Source: Escherichia coli (GTDB lineage Bacteria; Pseudomonadota; Gammaproteobacteria; Enterobacterales; Enterobacteriaceae). From it: a stretch of 64,000 bases of DNA. The notes beneath the pieces are model-generated. The model was not told the DNA's origin. It ran no database searches and saw only the letters and a list, made by a program, of their open reading frames with translations. Location of the stretch: NCBI RefSeq assembly GCF_030013595.1, contig NZ_CP122768.1. One strand, written 5' to 3'. This document shows positions 1-64,000 of this stretch, piece after piece. The first letter of the stretch is position 1; every line of letters starts with the position of its first letter. The position numbers were made by a program, and so were the translations under genes.

Positions 1-2322
<2,322 letters not shown>

Positions 2323-2433
2323 TCCTCTCTTTATCTGCTATACCTGGTAGTGTCCTTTCCTCAAGGTTAATGATAAAAAATGTGGCACACAGGCGGTGCC
2401 TTTTATTTTTACTGAAGTTCACAGGAGGTTTAT

Positions 2434-3201
2434 GTGTTTAATTCTGACAACCTGAGACTCGACGGAAAATGTGCCATCATCACAGGTGCCGGTGCAGGTA
2501 TTGGTAAAGAAATTGCCATTACATTCGCGACAGCTGGCGCATCTGTGGTGGTCAGTGATATTAACGCCGACGCAGCTAACCATGTTGTAGATGAAATTCA
2601 ACAACTGGGTGGTCAGGCATTTGCCTGCCGTTGTGATATTGCTTCCGAACAGGAACTCTCTGCACTGGCAGACTTTGCCGTCAGTAAGCTGGGTAAAGTT
2701 GATATCCTGGTTAACAACGCCGGTGGCGGTGGTCCTAAACCGTTTGATATGCCAATGGCAGATTTTCGCCGTGCTTATGAACTGAATGTGTTTTCTTTTT
2801 TCCATCTGTCACAACTTGTTGCGCCAGAAATGGAAAAAAATGGCGGTGGCGTTATTCTGACCATCACTTCTATGGCGGCAGAAAATAAAAATATAAACAT
2901 GACTTCTTATGCATCATCTAAAGCTGCGGCCAGTCATCTGGTCAGAAATATGGCGTTTGACCTGGGTGAAAAAAATATTCGGGTGAATGGCATTGCGCCG
3001 GGGGCAATATTAACCGATGCCCTGAAATCCGTTATTACACCAGAAATTGAACAAAAAATGTTACAGCACACGCCGATCAGACGTCTGGGCCAACCGCAAG
3101 ATATTGCTAACGCGGCGCTGTTCCTTTGCTCGCCTGCAGCCAGCTGGGTAAGCGGACAAATTCTCACCGTCTCCGGTGGTGGGGTACAGGAGCTGAATTA
3201 A
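2434..3201 (+). CDS. hdhA: 7-alpha-hydroxysteroid dehydrogenase (SDR family)
   Basis: 255 aa, GTG start, TGAGAGIG Rossmann motif and YxxxK SDR signature; matches HdhA as I recall it. Confidence 0.9.
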   Translation: MFNSDNLRLDGKCAIITGAGAGIGKEIAITFATAGASVVVSDINADAANHVVDEIQQLGGQAFACRCDIASEQELSALADFAVSKLGKVDILVNNAGGGGPKPFDMPMADFRRAYELNVFSFFHLSQLVAPEMEKNGGGVILTITSMAAENKNINMTSYASSKAAASHLVRNMAFDLGEKNIRVNGIAPGAILTDALKSVITPEIEQKMLQHTPIRRLGQPQDIANAALFLCSPAASWVSGQILTVSGGGVQELN

Positions 3202-3429
3202 TACACTAACGAACCGGTAAACAGCCGTATGTGTTGTTTACCGGGATAGCGTGTGCAATTCATCAACGTCTCTGCGAAACAACTGGCAGCCAAATCACGG
3301 CTATTGGTTAACCAATTACTGGGTGAAAAGTATACGAATAGAGTGTGCCTTCGCACTATTCAACAGCAATGATAGGCGCTCACCTGACAACGCGGTAAAC
3401 TAGTTATTCACGCTAACTATAATGGTTTT

Positions 3430-4020
3430 ATGATGGATAACATGCAGACTGAAGCACAACCGACACGGACCCGGATCCTCAATGCTGCCAGAGAGATTTT
3501 TTCAGAAAATGGATTTCACAGTGCCTCGATGAAAGCCATCTGTAAATCTTGCGCCATTAGTCCCGGGACGCTCTATCACCATTTCATCTCCAAAGAAGCC
3601 CTGATTCAGGCGATTATCTTACAGGACCAGGAGAGGGCGCTGGCCCGTTTCCGGGAACCGATTGAAGGGATTCATTTCGTTGACTATATGGTCGAGTCTA
3701 TTGTCTCTCTCACCCATGAAGCCTTTGGACAACGGGCGCTGGTGGTCGAAATTATGGCGGAAGGGATGCGTAACCCACAGGTCGCCGCCATGCTTAAAAA
3801 TAAACATATGACGATCACGGAATTTGTTGCCCAGCGGATGCGTGATGCCCAGCAAAAAGGCGAGATAAGCCCAGACATCAACACGGCAATGACTTCACGT
3901 TTACTGCTGGATCTGACCTACGGTGTACTGGCCGATATCGAAGCGGAAGATCTGGCGCGTGAAGCGTCGTTTGCTCAGGGATTACGCGCGATGATTGGCG
4001 GTATCTTAACCGCATCCTGA
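3430..4020 (+). CDS. uidR: TetR-family repressor of the uid operon
   Basis: 196 aa TetR-type HTH protein immediately upstream of uidA. Confidence 0.9.
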   Translation: MMDNMQTEAQPTRTRILNAAREIFSENGFHSASMKAICKSCAISPGTLYHHFISKEALIQAIILQDQERALARFREPIEGIHFVDYMVESIVSLTHEAFGQRALVVEIMAEGMRNPQVAAMLKNKHMTITEFVAQRMRDAQQKGEISPDINTAMTSRLLLDLTYGVLADIEAEDLAREASFAQGLRAMIGGILTAS

Positions 4021-4359
4021 TCCTCTCTCTCTTTCCGCGGGCTGGTGACAACTGAGCCCGCGTTTCATATCGTAATTTCTCTGTGCAAAAATTATCCTCC
4101 CCGGGAGCGGAGAATTCCCCCCCAAATATTCACTGTAGTCATATGTCATGAGAGTTTATCGTTCCCAACACGCTCGAACGAGCGTTCGATTGCTTATTTT
4201 ATGGCTTATGTCAACGCTGTTTTAAAGATTAATGCGATCTATATCACGCTGTGGGTATTGCAGTTTTTGGTTTTTTGATCCCGGTGTCAGTTCTTTTTAT
4301 TTCCATTTCTCTTCCATGGGTTTCTCACAGATAACTGTGTGTAGCACAGAATTGGTTAA

Positions 4360-7592
<3,233 letters not shown>

Positions 7593-57012: not shown

Positions 57013-57801
57013 TTAATTTTTCATTGCTTCGTTATGGGGCATGGTTGGGGCAAACTCGCTTAACTGTGTATTTAACAAAGCTACCTGTGCATTATTGTTT
57101 TCAGACATCCATTTTCCGTATACCTGAAATACCATTTGCGCATCTGCATGGCCCATCTGGTTTGCTATAAATGCCGGGTTAGCACCAGCTGTCAGCGACC
57201 AGCAGGCATAAGTATGTCTCGACTGATATGATTTTCGATGGCGGAGTCCGGCACGTTTTATCGCTGCGTCCCACATCTGCCTTATTGAGTCAACGGTAAA
57301 ATGGTCACCATAATTTTTTACTCTCGCTGACACTTCAGGTTGAAAAACAAAGGTGCATTTATGTTTTTCTGTTCTGCCATACTCTCTGAGGTGAACATCA
57401 ATGATATGCTCTTTGCTCAGTCTCGTTAATGTCATCTGACTCCGGAGAGCGTCGATTGCTGGCTTAATAAGATGAATGACCCGATTGGTTCCCGCCTGTG
57501 TTTTTGGTACCGTGAAACGGTCTTTTGCTAAATTTCTCCTGATCATCATTGTTCCATTTTTCAGATCTATGTCCTCCCATCCAAGTGCACACAGCTCACC
57601 AGGGCGAACGCCAGTATAAACAGAAACACACCATAAATTTTTGGCTTGCTGATTTCTGCACGCATCGATAAGACGGATGAATTCCTCCCGCGAAAGAGGA
57701 TCCGGAATGGTTCTTGATTCCTTTAATGGCGAGATCCCCTTAAACGGGTTATCTGCCAGGTAACCGTTATCAACACCAAACTGGAACACGGCGTTAAGAT
57801 T
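57013..57801 (-). pseudogene. lambdoid prophage tyrosine integrase, 3' (catalytic) fragment, separated from 5' part by IS66 copy 2
   Basis: Contains integrase motifs (RPGELCALGWEDID, HIIDVHLREYGRTEK, SRHTYACWSLTAG, HADAQMVFQVYGKW); reading continues in frame from 60502-61016 across the 8-bp TSD. Confidence 0.8.
57794..57801 (+). repeat. 8-bp target-site duplication TTAAGATT of IS66-family copy 2
   Basis: Identical octamer at 60502-60509 outside the other IS end. Confidence 0.8.
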
Positions 57802-57831
57802 GTAAGCGACTCGTCAGAACCGTATTGATAT

Positions 57832-59403
57832 TTACTGAGAGCTCAGATCAACTTTCCAGGGCAACAGATCGCGTACCCGGTTTGCCGGCCAGTCCTGGAT
57901 ATGTTCAATGACGTAACGCAGCCACTTTTCTGGCTCCACATTGTTCAGACGGCATGTGCCGATCAGCGAGTACAACACCGCCGCATGTTCACCACCGCTG
58001 TCGGAACCCGCGAACATCCAGTTTTTCCGGCCTACGGCCACTCCCCGTAAGGCGTTCTCTGCGATGTTGTTGTCGATTTCCACCCAGCCATTACTGCAGT
58101 ACACGTTCAGTGCATCCCACTGTTTCAGCAGGTATGCGAACGCTTTTGCCGTATCTGAGTGACGCGACAGTGTTTTCATCTGTTGCTGTATCCAGTCATA
58201 CAGTGACTGCATCAGTGGCGCGGCTCTGGCTTTTCTTGCCGCCAGACGCTGTTCTGCTGAACAGCCCCGGACCTCTGCCTCGATGGCATACAGTTCACCG
58301 ATACGCTGCAGGGCTTCCGTGGTGATGTAGGTGGGCGCTCTTGCATGCACATCGTGGATTTTTCTCCGGGCATGAGCCATACACGCGGCTTCCGTTATTC
58401 TGCCGGATTCGTATAACGCCCGGTAACCACCGTAAGCATCGGCCTGAAGCACACCGCTGTAACCGGCCAGGTGATTTTGTGGATGGATACCTTTCCGGTC
58501 CGGACTGTACGCGAACCAGACCGCCGGGGGCATCTGTGAACCGGCGTTACGGTCATCACGGACGTAGACCCACAGCCGGGCTGTCCGGGTTTTACCGCTG
58601 CCCGGCTCCTGGACCGGGACGGGGATATCATCAGCATGGACTTTACCGGGCATCAGCACATACTGGCGCAGGACGTCATACAGCGGCTCCAGCAGTTCAG
58701 CAACAGCACCTGTCCAGCGCCCCAGTGTGGCACGGCTCAGCTCCACTCCCTGACGACGGTATATTTCTGACTGGCGGTATAACGGCAGATGGTCTGCATA
58801 TTTCCCGGTGACAACATGGGCCAGAAGCCCCGCTCCGGCATAACTGCGTGCAATGGGTTTTGAAGGTACTGGTGCCTGTACGATATGGTCGCACCGGCAA
58901 CAGGCCTGTTTCGGACGTTGTGTTTCGATAACCTTAAAGGCGCTGCTGATAAGCTCCAGTTGCTCTGACACATCACATCCCAGAGAACTGAGTTCACCAC
59001 CACAGGCAGGACAGCATTCCTCTTCCGGCCGGATAACCCGGGTTTCACGGGGAAGTGAGGCCGGTAACGGTTTACGGGCTGAAGACTGGCGCAGGGCGGA
59101 TGGCAGTACCGGGTCATATTGCTCACCCAGCGTTTCCGCCATTTCTTCCTGAAGTGCGCTGATTCGCTCCTGTGCTTCCTGTATCTGCCGTTCGGTTTTT
59201 GCACGAAGTTTTTCTGAGCTTTTACCGAACTGCATACGTTGCAGTTTCGCAACCAGCGCCTTCAGCCGGTTGATTTCGGAAGCATAAGCCGCCACCCGCT
59301 GTGAGAGCAGGCGGTTGTATTCAGCCATCTGGCGGATGGTGTCCTGTTGCGTCTGCAACAGTGCCCGCAGGCGGGCGTTCTCATGAGCAAGTGAGGTGTC
59401 CAT
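57832..59403 (-). CDS. IS66-family transposase (orf3)
   Basis: 523 aa product identical to 44727-46298. Confidence 0.85.
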
Positions 59404-59422
59404 ATCCTCACTTTACAACGGG

Positions 59423-59770
59423 TTATATGCGGATTCCAGCGCGTTCCGTTCGTTTCGGGTGCTTCCAGTTGATACCTTCAAGAAGCATGGATAACTGAGC
59501 CGGAGTAAGGTGCACCTTGCCGTCACGGGTGACTGGCCAGACGAAGCGGCCCCGCTCCAGGCGTTTGGTGAAGAGGCACAGTCCGTCACTGTCAGCCCAC
59601 AACACTTTTATCTGGTCACCCCGGCGTCCGCGGAAGATGAACAGGTGTCCGGAGAACGGGTCATCCTTCAGGACGTTCTGAACTTTTGATGCCAGGCCGT
59701 TAAAGCCATTTCGCATATCGGTGATACCTGCAACCAGCCAGATACGCGAACCTGCAGGGAGAGATATCAT
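59423..59770 (-). CDS. IS66-family Orf2 (TnpB-like)
   Basis: 115 aa identical to copy 1. Confidence 0.85.
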   Translation of the reverse strand: MISLPAGSRIWLVAGITDMRNGFNGLASKVQNVLKDDPFSGHLFIFRGRRGDQIKVLWADSDGLCLFTKRLERGRFVWPVTRDGKVHLTPAQLSMLLEGINWKHPKRTERAGIRI

Positions 59771-60417
59771 CAGTGGCTGCTCCCTTTTATTTCGCGGATA
59801 AGTGTCTGTAATAACGCCGGCGTCAGTTTACCTTTAAGCCTGAGAGTTCCGGCCGGCAGAACCAGCTCACAACACAGACTGTCGGACGGTGTATTTATCT
59901 GCTCTGGTTCCTGTGCGGGGGCCGGGATTTTATTATCCGGCTCCGGCGTTAACGTCACGGGAAGCAGTGCCGGCATATTTTTTCCGGAAGGCAGCAGGCC
60001 ACCTTTCCGGTATTGATGGCGCCAGTTGAAGAGCAGGTTATCGTTGATTCCGTTTTCCCGGGCGATCTGCGCCACACAGGCTCCGGGCTGCAGTGACTGC
60101 TCCACTAAGGCGATTTTAAACTCATAAGGGAAGTTGGGCCGCCGGGGACGTTTTTTTACCACGGGGGCTTCGGATATAACGGTGCTTTCAGGACGTACGA
60201 CTGGTACCGTGGAAAATTGTCCGTAAAGGCAGGCATCAAGTTCCTGCTCCGACATGCCTGCGGGCAAAGGCCACGAAAGGCCAGCTCTCCGAAAGCGCAC
60301 GAACATACTACAAACTGTTGATTTTGGTACACCCAGGCGACGCCCGGCCACAACCCGGGGTAAATGTTCTTCAAAGTGAAGACGTAAAGCTTCAGTGATC
60401 CAGGTCCGGTGTTTCAT
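59770..60417 (-). CDS. IS66-family accessory protein (orf1)
   Basis: 215 aa identical to copy 1. Confidence 0.8.
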   Translation of the reverse strand: MKHRTWITEALRLHFEEHLPRVVAGRRLGVPKSTVCSMFVRFRRAGLSWPLPAGMSEQELDACLYGQFSTVPVVRPESTVISEAPVVKKRPRRPNFPYEFKIALVEQSLQPGACVAQIARENGINDNLLFNWRHQYRKGGLLPSGKNMPALLPVTLTPEPDNKIPAPAQEPEQINTPSDSLCCELVLPAGTLRLKGKLTPALLQTLIREIKGSSH

Positions 60418-60501
60418 ACGATAGTGTCCATTAAAAAATGATGGACATTATTTTTGTAGAGCCGGAGGAAACAGACCAGACGGTTTAAATGAGCCGGTTA
60501 C

Positions 60502-61016
60502 TTAAGATTTGTCATGTAATTATTTACAGTTACAGCCGATCTACCTGGTTGTGTAACAATATAGTTACTTTTGGGGCTCTGGTATCCAGTCAGTAGCTCT
60601 TTACGAACCTCCAGTAATTTTTCTTTATTAATCGATGAGGCAAGATTTTTTTCACCGATTATGCTCAGGATATTTTTGATGACGGCACGGTATGTGTTGA
60701 GTGATGTTTTTGCGACTTCAGTTTCTTTCAGTGCCAGAAATTTTTCAGCCAGTTCTTTTATGGTTAAATCTTGTCGGGTCTCACCAAATTTTTCCAGATT
60801 GCGTGAGGAGGGAAACTGTTTTGCATAGTCGAAAACACCAGTTTTTATTGCGTAACAAACAGAGGCGCGTAGCTCACCTGCAACGCGCCTGTTTTTTGCT
60901 GTGTCAGGAACCCCCAGGTTTTCCCTGACTCTTACGCCTTTATAAACAAACCAGATACGTAATTTCCCTCCATGGTTTTCCACGCCTGTCGGATATTTCA
61001 TTTCAACTTCTCTCAT
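60502..61016 (-). pseudogene. lambdoid prophage integrase, 5' fragment (N-terminal arm-binding domain)
   Basis: MKYPTGVENHGGKLRIWFVYKGVRVRENLGVPDTAKNRRVAGELRASV, typical phage integrase N-terminus; ORF terminates at a stop supplied by the IS end. Confidence 0.8.
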
Positions 61017-61359: not shown

Positions 61360-63831
61360 TTAAGAATCAGCCTGACTCGGGATCAGTTTTTGCCAGATAA
61401 CTGAAACGTATTTTGCTTGGTAACGGGCGTCATCAAGTGCATTATGGCGCTCACCTTCGAATGGAATAGCCGTTCTGGCATCGAAATCTATGGCTTTCCC
61501 CAGCTCAACGATTGTGCGTACATCGCGATCGTTGTAGTAACGCCACGGGCAGGGGATCCCCTGCCGTTCGTATGAACGGCGCAAAATCGTGTTGTCGAAG
61601 TTGGCTCCATTTCCCCAAACCTGAACAAAAAATTCACCGGAGTTTTCGTCGATAAATTCCCGCAATTGTAACAGTGCATCATCTAACGGGATTTCATCGG
61701 TCATAATGGCAGATTGTGCTTCGCGTGATTGCTTAAGCCACCATTTAATGGTGTCCCGATCAATGACTCCGCCAGCAGTTTCCAGATCGATAGTCTTACT
61801 AAATTCCGGTCCTATATCTCCGGTTTGCGGATCGAAAAATATTGCACCTATTGAGATGATCGGTGCATCAGGATTTTTTCCCATGGTTTCAAGGTCGATC
61901 ATTAGATGGTCACACGTCCTGCTGGTGGATGTGATTTTGTGATGACCGTTCACCTTAATTGAGTGATCTGCCGTCTCGCCAGTTTCATTATCGCTATTGT
62001 GATGCTGATTGCCGCCAGTGTTCTCCTTGTGTGGATGTTCAGCGCCTTCCATTTCCTCCGGATCATCTTCCTGAACTTCAACCTGATACTCTTCATCGAA
62101 TGTTTCTTGGTATGTTGCGTCGCCCATCACCGCGCCACAATCAGGGCAGTTGCCGCCGCCGGTCTGACCGCAGGCGGTGCAGACTTTTTCCACTTCCTGT
62201 TGCGCCACTGGTTCAGGCTGTTTCGTTTCTGGCTCGTTTTGTAACGCATTTGGGCTGTTTTGTTCCGCTTTTTGGTAGTTCCGTTCCGATTCATGCTGGT
62301 TCTGGTTCACAGAATCGCGGGTCTGGATCCCCTTAACCCATTTCGGATCATTCGGGTCACTAATCCCTTCAACAAATTCACCATGTGATGCAGCAAGCAA
62401 CTTATCGGCGTCAGGCTGGCTGATATTGGCTGCCTGCATAATTTTGTTTACTTCGTCAGCGGTAACTTTTATCGGCTCTGGTTGTTCTGAATCTTCAGCG
62501 GTATCTACATTTTGCGGTAAGCCCGTGTATGTGCCATTTTTTCGGGCAAAATATTCTTCTTTTGTGATTTCAGTGGCGCCAGCAGCCAGTGCCTTATCTA
62601 GACCAGAAAGTTTGTTTGCGCGACCGTATTTTTCTCCGTCCTTATCTGCGAAGAGGAAATAGAACGGCCCCTCACGCTCTACAGATGGTTCAGCTTCCGG
62701 CGCGGTTTCATTTTTTGGGATATCAGATACCTCAGTTTCCACTGCATCAGTTTGTGTTTCTGATGACTGGAGAACATCAACAGTGCCCAGGTCTGTTTCT
62801 TCATTCTCAAACACGCCCTTTGTCGTCAGGTATTCGCAGATATATTTGTTCAGTGCTACGGGATCTTTGTGAATGTCGATCGGACGCTCACGGACAAGGC
62901 CAAAAATAGTTTGGCGGTCGTAGCGAAGGGCATCAGGCTGTTTGCGCATTGATGCCGAGATACGCTTCCAGTCTTCGCGGTCGTTGTCGATAACTTCTTT
63001 TTTTGCCCAGCGATGGATGCTGCCGTCAATGTTTCCGGCATCCACATCACCAGGCCAGAGAGCGTAGGCCAGTTCGTCATCCAGTGTTTTCCATGTCTGC
63101 TTGTATTCGCGATGAATGGCAGCAATGACCGGGCTGATTTTTCCTGTTGAATTTTCAGTGTACTGTTGATTGGCTCTGGCGCGGGCGAGATCAACAACAG
63201 ACGTGTATTTTCCGGTTTCCTTGCGTTCACCTTCGCGACGTTTTTTCCAGATGCGCATCTCTGCCTGAATTTCGGGCCATTTAGCACCAGGAATACATTT
63301 ATGCTTAACCCACCCAATGGCGTGCAACTTAAGCTCCGGATACATGGCGTTAACTTCTGGCATTTTCATCAACGCTTCAACGATATGTCCGTCGAATGTT
63401 GCCATGTCTTCCTGCAACAATTCCTGTGCGCTAATAACCATATCAACGGTGATGTTTTCACATGTGTCGAACTTAACCATGACAGCGTTCTGTACTTCAG
63501 GGGCCAGCTTGTCAAAAGTGACGTTCATCGGATCGGATTCAGTCTCAACCGGGACAAAAGAAGCAGACTCCTCATCCCAGCGGTTTTCCTGCATATATTC
63601 AGCATCCCATGAATCGAGGGCAGGGCGGGGTATGCCAGGTTTATCCTCGCAGACAATAAATTTATAAGCGCAGTCCTGAGCAGCCGGATAATGTTCCAGG
63701 AACTGCCAGTGAAATTTTGCTCGAGCACGGCGTTCGTCGCCAGCTTCAATGGCTGTGGCTACAGCCACAGCGCCTTCTTCCCTTGTTGCCAGTTCGTCAG
63801 GAATAGCGGCGCAAATAAAGACTTTACTCAT
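61360..63831 (-). CDS. prophage exonuclease-like protein (823 aa) with C-terminal DnaQ/DEDD-type 3'-5' exonuclease domain
   Basis: C-terminal DLET...NGANFDNTIL...HNALDDARY pattern resembles DEDDh exonuclease motifs; acidic central region with a Cys cluster (CTACGQTGGGNCPDCG). Confidence 0.55.
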   Translation of the reverse strand: MSKVFICAAIPDELATREEGAVAVATAIEAGDERRARAKFHWQFLEHYPAAQDCAYKFIVCEDKPGIPRPALDSWDAEYMQENRWDEESASFVPVETESDPMNVTFDKLAPEVQNAVMVKFDTCENITVDMVISAQELLQEDMATFDGHIVEALMKMPEVNAMYPELKLHAIGWVKHKCIPGAKWPEIQAEMRIWKKRREGERKETGKYTSVVDLARARANQQYTENSTGKISPVIAAIHREYKQTWKTLDDELAYALWPGDVDAGNIDGSIHRWAKKEVIDNDREDWKRISASMRKQPDALRYDRQTIFGLVRERPIDIHKDPVALNKYICEYLTTKGVFENEETDLGTVDVLQSSETQTDAVETEVSDIPKNETAPEAEPSVEREGPFYFLFADKDGEKYGRANKLSGLDKALAAGATEITKEEYFARKNGTYTGLPQNVDTAEDSEQPEPIKVTADEVNKIMQAANISQPDADKLLAASHGEFVEGISDPNDPKWVKGIQTRDSVNQNQHESERNYQKAEQNSPNALQNEPETKQPEPVAQQEVEKVCTACGQTGGGNCPDCGAVMGDATYQETFDEEYQVEVQEDDPEEMEGAEHPHKENTGGNQHHNSDNETGETADHSIKVNGHHKITSTSRTCDHLMIDLETMGKNPDAPIISIGAIFFDPQTGDIGPEFSKTIDLETAGGVIDRDTIKWWLKQSREAQSAIMTDEIPLDDALLQLREFIDENSGEFFVQVWGNGANFDNTILRRSYERQGIPCPWRYYNDRDVRTIVELGKAIDFDARTAIPFEGERHNALDDARYQAKYVSVIWQKLIPSQADS

Positions 63832-64000
63832 TTTGTTTTAACCTCATGACAGATTTAAGGATGAACAAATCCCTGCCATTGCTGGCATATAAGAATGAAA
63901 CCGGATATTTATTACGGAACTGTTTTAAAGACCTGCCGGGATTTCGATATTATCCTGGTGAATAACTTTATCGACCGGGTAACAGTTACCGGGAATTTTC

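Follow-up and report, generated by a model that had tools for sequence, protein, structure and literature searches.

The stretch of Escherichia coli DNA analysed here (64,000 nucleotides of contig NZ_CP122768.1; hereafter the window) carries an 823-amino-acid open reading frame (ORF) on the minus strand at 61360-63831, in the rspB-adjacent Qin-type lambdoid prophage. The ORF, which we call a YdfE-type prophage exonuclease, is preceded by a GAGG Shine-Dalgarno sequence at 63842-63845 (10 nt 5' of the ATG) and matches PHROG 2082 ('exonuclease') end to end. Its architecture is already catalogued, and the gene is among the commonest E. coli prophage genes. As judged from its domains, the protein joins a DEDDh-type 3'-5' exonuclease domain to a long non-catalytic scaffold, the middle of which is shared with the recombination nuclease RecE. 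Module borders were set by searching parts of the protein against distant relatives, and the resulting plan is as follows.

61360-63831, minus strand: YdfE-type prophage exonuclease, full-length coding sequence (from the ORF listing; ATG start, 823 aa)
63112-63831, minus strand: module N1, aa 1-240; YdfE_N (PF27430) in newer Pfam, from precomputed labels on homologues
62797-63111, minus strand: module N2, aa 241-345; YdfE_C (PF27432), helical and weakly RecE-like
62677-62796, minus strand: acidic linker, aa 346-385, predicted to be disordered (predicted local distance difference test, pLDDT, <50; about 30% Asp/Glu)
62422-62676, minus strand: module M1, aa 386-470; small conserved segment that is a separate module in relatives
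61957-62421, minus strand: module M2, aa 471-625; common to RecE and ending in an acidic tract
62137-62181, minus strand: putative zinc ribbon, CxxC-x7-CxxC (C551, C554, C562, C565), read from the sequence and kept in RecE
61393-61908, minus strand: DEDDh 3'-5' exonuclease domain, aa 642-813 (module about 640-823), Pfam PF16473 (Rv2179c-like)

The last 180 residues match the Rv2179c-like family PF16473 over profile positions 2-177 of 177 (E 2.5e-67; 226.4 bits against a gathering cutoff of 27), with a further, weak match of the C-terminus to RNase_T (PF00929; E 6.8e-5). All five catalytic residues are present, namely D646 and E648 (the DxE of Exo I), D746 (Exo II), and H796 and D801 (the Hx4D of Exo III), and none of them varies when the domain is aligned with T4 DexA, an EcD-like protein and two phage homologues. 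The segment is therefore assigned to the DnaQ-like DEDDh nucleases of the Rv2179c/DexA family, and it has the full complement of catalytic residues that two-metal hydrolysis starting at a free 3' end requires. The domain is widespread, as tblastn found it in 1299 phage records. A Pfam search of the ORF detected neither a lambda-Exo nor a RecE nuclease domain, and phmmer with the RecE nuclease domain matched relatives of the protein, though not the clustered representative P0001. The sequence-only reading, which had placed the C-terminus with DnaQ-like exonucleases rather than with the lambda Exo or RecE type, is thus borne out: Pfam assigns a nuclease fold to this region, and it is not of the PD-(D/E)XK kind. 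The same reading had remarked on an acidic centre with a CxxC...CxxC cluster, which we locate at C551-x2-C554 and C562-x2-C565 and in residues 561-600, where Asp and Glu make up 35% of positions and Lys and Arg are absent. Of the two comparisons it had suggested, that with RecE reveals a homologous centre and a different C-terminus, and that with the prophage exonucleases of other E. coli genomes returns RefSeq genes labelled 'exonuclease' or '3'-5' exonuclease' at 99.8-99.9% nucleotide identity.

The remainder of the protein is built from YdfE_N, YdfE_C, M1 and the Cys4/acidic M2, which together form what, from its domain content, is a non-catalytic scaffold. N1 is predicted with high confidence by AlphaFold2 (pLDDT >90) as an alpha/beta subdomain (aa 1-95) followed by a helical subdomain (aa 105-205); a structure search with it gave no noteworthy match among solved or viral structures. 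N2 is weakly similar to RecE aa 295-368 by BLASTP, and both the YdfE_N and YdfE_C labels appear in the precomputed annotation of a 94%-identical clustered representative and of relatives, with PF16473 also among the labels on homologues. M2 is the part closest to RecE, with 74% identity to the RecE of Rac-SA53 over aa 474-621 (BLASTP), including both the cysteine cluster, which may bind metal as a zinc ribbon, and the acidic stretch; megablast also reports a match to recE here. The NCBIfam RecE model (PRK09709, NF007259) covers aa 246-625 with its positions 271-602 (E 4e-83), scoring 279.9 bits where the cutoff is 1269. The middle of the protein is thus RecE-like, and its two ends are not.

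When aa 1-639 were searched against 1.84 billion representative proteins, 243 matches reached E <=0.001, numerous fragments among them, so that the scaffold family appears from these sequences to be small. Tail classes were read from 50%-identity representatives of at least 450 aa. DEDDh tails are found in seven (P0001, P0121, P0122, P0128, P0137, P0141 and P0250), some of which have the RecE N-terminus PF06630 in place of YdfE_N, and about ten carry the RecE PD-(D/E)XK nuclease. In 14 representatives the tail is of a third type, about 285 aa long and Rad52-like by fold comparison, the only means by which this likeness is seen: a profile of the tail against PDB sequences returned nothing significant. 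The fourth kind, a RecT domain, occurs in P0205 only (703 aa), where PF06630, M2 and RecT lie in one polypeptide that could be a real fusion or an artefact of a recE-recT deletion or frameshift. By domain annotation and fold comparison, the scaffold modules are thus common to relatives bearing four kinds of tail, namely a DEDDh nuclease, a RecE nuclease, a Rad52-like annealase and RecT. Gene neighbourhoods follow the tails. At the one locus examined for a RecE-type relative (P0131), an overlapping RecT-family gene follows (E 2e-36). At the DEDDh loci, represented by the synteny partners of the window and three distant relatives, xis and int lie directly downstream in all six examined, and an annealase gene adjoins none of the six; nor did Pfam or PHROGs detect an annealase elsewhere in HannyBb's early-left operon.

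The nearest relatives of the nuclease domain outside this family are stand-alone phage genes of about 190 aa, found in PhiR55_1 (Escherichia; 60% identity) and vB_YenS-P840 (Yersinia; 54%). As with the gene described here, their place is close to the att-proximal end of the early operon, in the early-left (ea) region of their lambdoid phages; they lack the scaffold, however, have yet to be characterised and bear the wrong name 'exodeoxyribonuclease VIII'. Among solved structures, sequence searches matched only PDB 8KEL and 8KEN, a 227-aa exodeoxyribonuclease; its length, its alignment and the DexA structure paper of 2025 lead us to regard it as T4 DexA. At the thresholds tried, Rv2179c was unmatched. 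DexA is a 3'-5' DNA exonuclease that prefers single-stranded DNA, and its E. coli homologue EcD degrades T4 DNA containing 5-hydroxymethylcytosine (5hmC) and, when produced from a plasmid, blocks T4 (PMC12153337). We recovered an EcD-like gene by means of the primers printed in that paper (one base off the printed reverse primer; Ala at position 78, as in the paper). That EcD might be a fragment of the 823-aa protein was considered and rejected, since the gene delimited by the primers is a distinct one of 189 aa, whose product begins MIDTET. The domain is 24-28% identical to DexA and 37% identical to the EcD-like protein over 183 aa (E 3e-36), and shares with both the DEDDh/Rv2179c-like family and an alignment of all catalytic residues. 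It differs from these HREX proteins in being the tail of an 823-aa protein rather than a stand-alone enzyme of 189 (EcD) or 227 (DexA) aa, and in the residues reported to contact 5hmC: DexA W152 corresponds to Y766, and D169 to K779 or A780, the alignment of the D169 loop being uncertain, whereas the EcD-like protein has W and E.

The EcD-like 189-aa gene (L007, 6401-6970, minus strand; also L008, L010, L011, L020 and L022) was itself found on viral or prophage contigs, and the 'bacterial' defence gene of PMC12153337 may therefore be phage-borne.

In K-12 MG1655 the equivalent position next to rspB is occupied by the pseudogene ydfE (b1577), truncated by IS2E, the first 256 codons of which (window 63064-63831; MG1655 locus record 5079-5999) are 100% identical to the exonuclease ORF. 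On this identity and the common rspB-adjacent locus, the ORF is the intact form of a Qin-type gene that survives in K-12 only as a pseudogene, without M1, M2 or the nuclease domain. Elsewhere the gene is frequent: megablast finds it at coverage of at least 80% in 3536 of 5426 complete E. coli genomes and in any part in 4799 of them, with a median of two copies per genome, and it is full-length in the isolated phages HannyBb, PhiR42_1, Tritos and Evi. The allele of PPompW_EH1846, an ompW-integrated phage of enterohaemorrhagic E. coli, is annotated as frameshifted by a deletion (1632-4099 of its record), and the gene is therefore dispensable in at least some phages.

Selection was gauged from one pairwise comparison, between the window allele and that of phage Evi. 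The ratio of nonsynonymous to synonymous divergence (dN/dS) is 0.22 over the whole ORF, with regional values of 0.08 for N1, 0.12 for N2, 0.21 for M1 and 0.14 for the DEDDh domain, while the two linkers give 0.75 (aa 346-385) and 1.5. By this measure the ORF is conserved, with purifying selection acting on it, most clearly in N1, N2 and the DEDDh domain. Synonymous divergence between window 61360-63831 and the corresponding segment of locus L043 (3001-5481) spans a roughly four-fold range, from 0.15 in N2 and 0.19 in N1 to 0.60 in the DEDDh domain, a spread that fits lambdoid mosaicism and indicates probable recombination joints at the inter-domain linkers.

The ORF is flanked in the window by the following features.

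63925-64000, minus strand: 3' end of a ydfD-like gene of the same operon, truncated at the window edge (synteny with REL606 and phage HannyBb)
61036-61287, minus strand: excisionase gene (xis), 83 aa, directly downstream (ORF; annotated excisionase in syntenic records)
57013-61016, minus strand: integrase gene (int), split into an N-terminal piece (60498-61016) and a second piece (57013-57789), both ORFs
57802-60501: IS66-family element inside int, about 2.7 kb, with three IS66-family-type minus-strand ORFs (215, 115 and 523 aa)

Both E. coli B REL606 and the isolated phage HannyBb show the order rspB - int - xis - exonuclease - ydfD - dicB - ... - repressor, the ydfD-type (DUF1482) gene ending 93 nt 5' of the exonuclease start. 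The sequence-only reading had set the ORF beside int-xis, in the position of a lambdoid recombination exonuclease, and both points stand: the gene belongs to the early-left operon directly upstream of xis-int, with xis immediately downstream and int disrupted by an insertion sequence (IS). In the Rac prophage, recE occupies the equivalent operon, where recT, ralR and ydaC separate it from xis/int. Aligned by blastn with the intact int of HannyBb, the two int pieces overlap by 8 bp, taken as the target-site duplication flanking the IS66-family element. Since int is split, self-excision of the prophage has probably been lost; and with IS2E in the K-12 ydfE, two different IS elements have hit the int-proximal end of this one prophage type in different strains.

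We favour the view that the gene encodes an early-operon 3'-end DNA exonuclease mounted on a recombination-associated scaffold, a composite reading to which we assign a probability of roughly 0.55; its domain-level part, resting on the profile and residue matches above, is near certain. Once a DicA- or CI-type repressor is lifted, the gene would be transcribed together with dicB, ydfD, xis and int, and in K-12 a promoter 5' of dicB has been described as able to transcribe dicB, ydfD, ydfE, insD7 and intQ (bioRxiv 10.1101/2024.09.21.614188). The scaffold may then tether the nuclease at a DNA structure or partner that is also used by RecE and the fused annealases, where the DEDDh domain would trim or degrade DNA 3' ends, with a preference for single-stranded DNA by analogy with DexA and EcD. 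Such trimming could serve the processing of phage DNA ends, or the destruction of host or competing DNA. A two-component recombinase in the style of lambda Red or RecET is probably not what this gene contributes to. Several considerations weigh against the favoured view. Polarity of 3'-5' would destroy the 3' overhangs needed by annealases and RecA, so that a role in promoting recombination is not obvious; the Pfam family owes its name to an exoribonuclease, and the substrate may yet be RNA; the timing of transcription is argued from K-12 Qin and lambdoid logic; and loss of the gene in K-12, together with the frameshifted PPompW_EH1846 allele, makes it dispensable to the host.

One alternative is that the protein is a genuine RecE (exodeoxyribonuclease VIII), the name given to the gene in the records of phages PhiR42_1, Tritos and vB_EcoS-640R1. 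RecE of Rac is likewise a large early-left-operon protein encoded upstream of xis-int, and the central 380 aa here align to the RecE model; yet the score falls far short of that model's cutoff, and only part of the model is covered. The C-terminus is DEDDh (3'-5') where that of RecE is PD-(D/E)XK (5'-3'), giving an expected polarity opposite to RecE's, the N-terminal 240 or so residues are YdfE_N and not the Exonuc_VIII domain PF06630, which is absent from the Pfam matches of the ORF, and there is no adjacent recT partner gene. Domain content thus refutes the identity, and we give it next to no weight. Hardly more credible is a decaying mosaic remnant devoid of current function, although int is IS-disrupted here, the K-12 copy is truncated, one phage allele is frameshifted and the linkers evolve almost neutrally: dN/dS is 0.08-0.14 in three folded parts, every catalytic residue is intact, and full-length ORFs persist across thousands of genomes as well as in isolated phages.

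Two further possibilities deserve more consideration, though each remains unlikely. The protein could be a defence nuclease of the HREX/EcD type that degrades incoming T-even 5hmC-DNA to protect the host, as would suit its kinship with EcD and DexA, the T4 block by plasmid-expressed EcD, its persistence in roughly two of every three complete E. coli genomes, and its neighbour dicB, a prophage gene studied for host physiology. The residues linked to 5hmC recognition in PMC12153337 are not conserved, however (with the caveat on the loop alignment given above); the gene sits within a repressor-controlled early-left operon rather than in the position of a moron expressed in the lysogen, PADLOC matched no defence-system model to it, and the 640-aa scaffold is common to recombination proteins. 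Slightly less probable again is a 3'-5' exoribonuclease acting on phage or host transcripts, on a small RNA such as DicF, or on short RNA oligomers. PF16473 takes its name from the Mycobacterium tuberculosis exoribonuclease Rv2179c, many RefSeq copies are called '3'-5' exoribonuclease', and DEDDh enzymes comprise RNases and DNases alike; but sequence searches of solved structures return the DNA exonuclease DexA and never Rv2179c at the thresholds tried, EcD, the closest tested relative, acts on DNA, and the scaffold co-occurs with DNA recombination domains.

A bolder extension of the 3'-end exonuclease reading, which we hold only tentatively and consider unlikely as it stands, is that the YdfE/RecE scaffold is a general docking module bringing interchangeable DNA-end enzymes to one site in the infected cell. 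If so, the DEDDh form would represent an annealase-independent 3'-end degradation activity, prophage-borne in most E. coli strains, which might serve to overcome a host defence, keep out rival phages or alter recombination. The literature searched yielded no functional study of the full-length YdfE-type exonuclease and no statement that DNA-end enzymes of four kinds share the RecE/YdfE scaffold. RecE's own N-terminal, non-catalytic portion has been described as of unknown function (PMC11611040), and the comparison of tails offers a concrete handle on what this long segment, to which no function is assigned, may do; we regard it as a modest lead for phage-recombination research. As most E. coli strains other than K-12, including B strains, carry a full-length predicted 3'-5' exonuclease of this type, the gene may matter for phage work and recombineering. 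The comparison also exposes database mislabels, with 'exodeoxyribonuclease VIII' attached to DEDDh proteins and 'exonuclease' to Rad52-like fusions.

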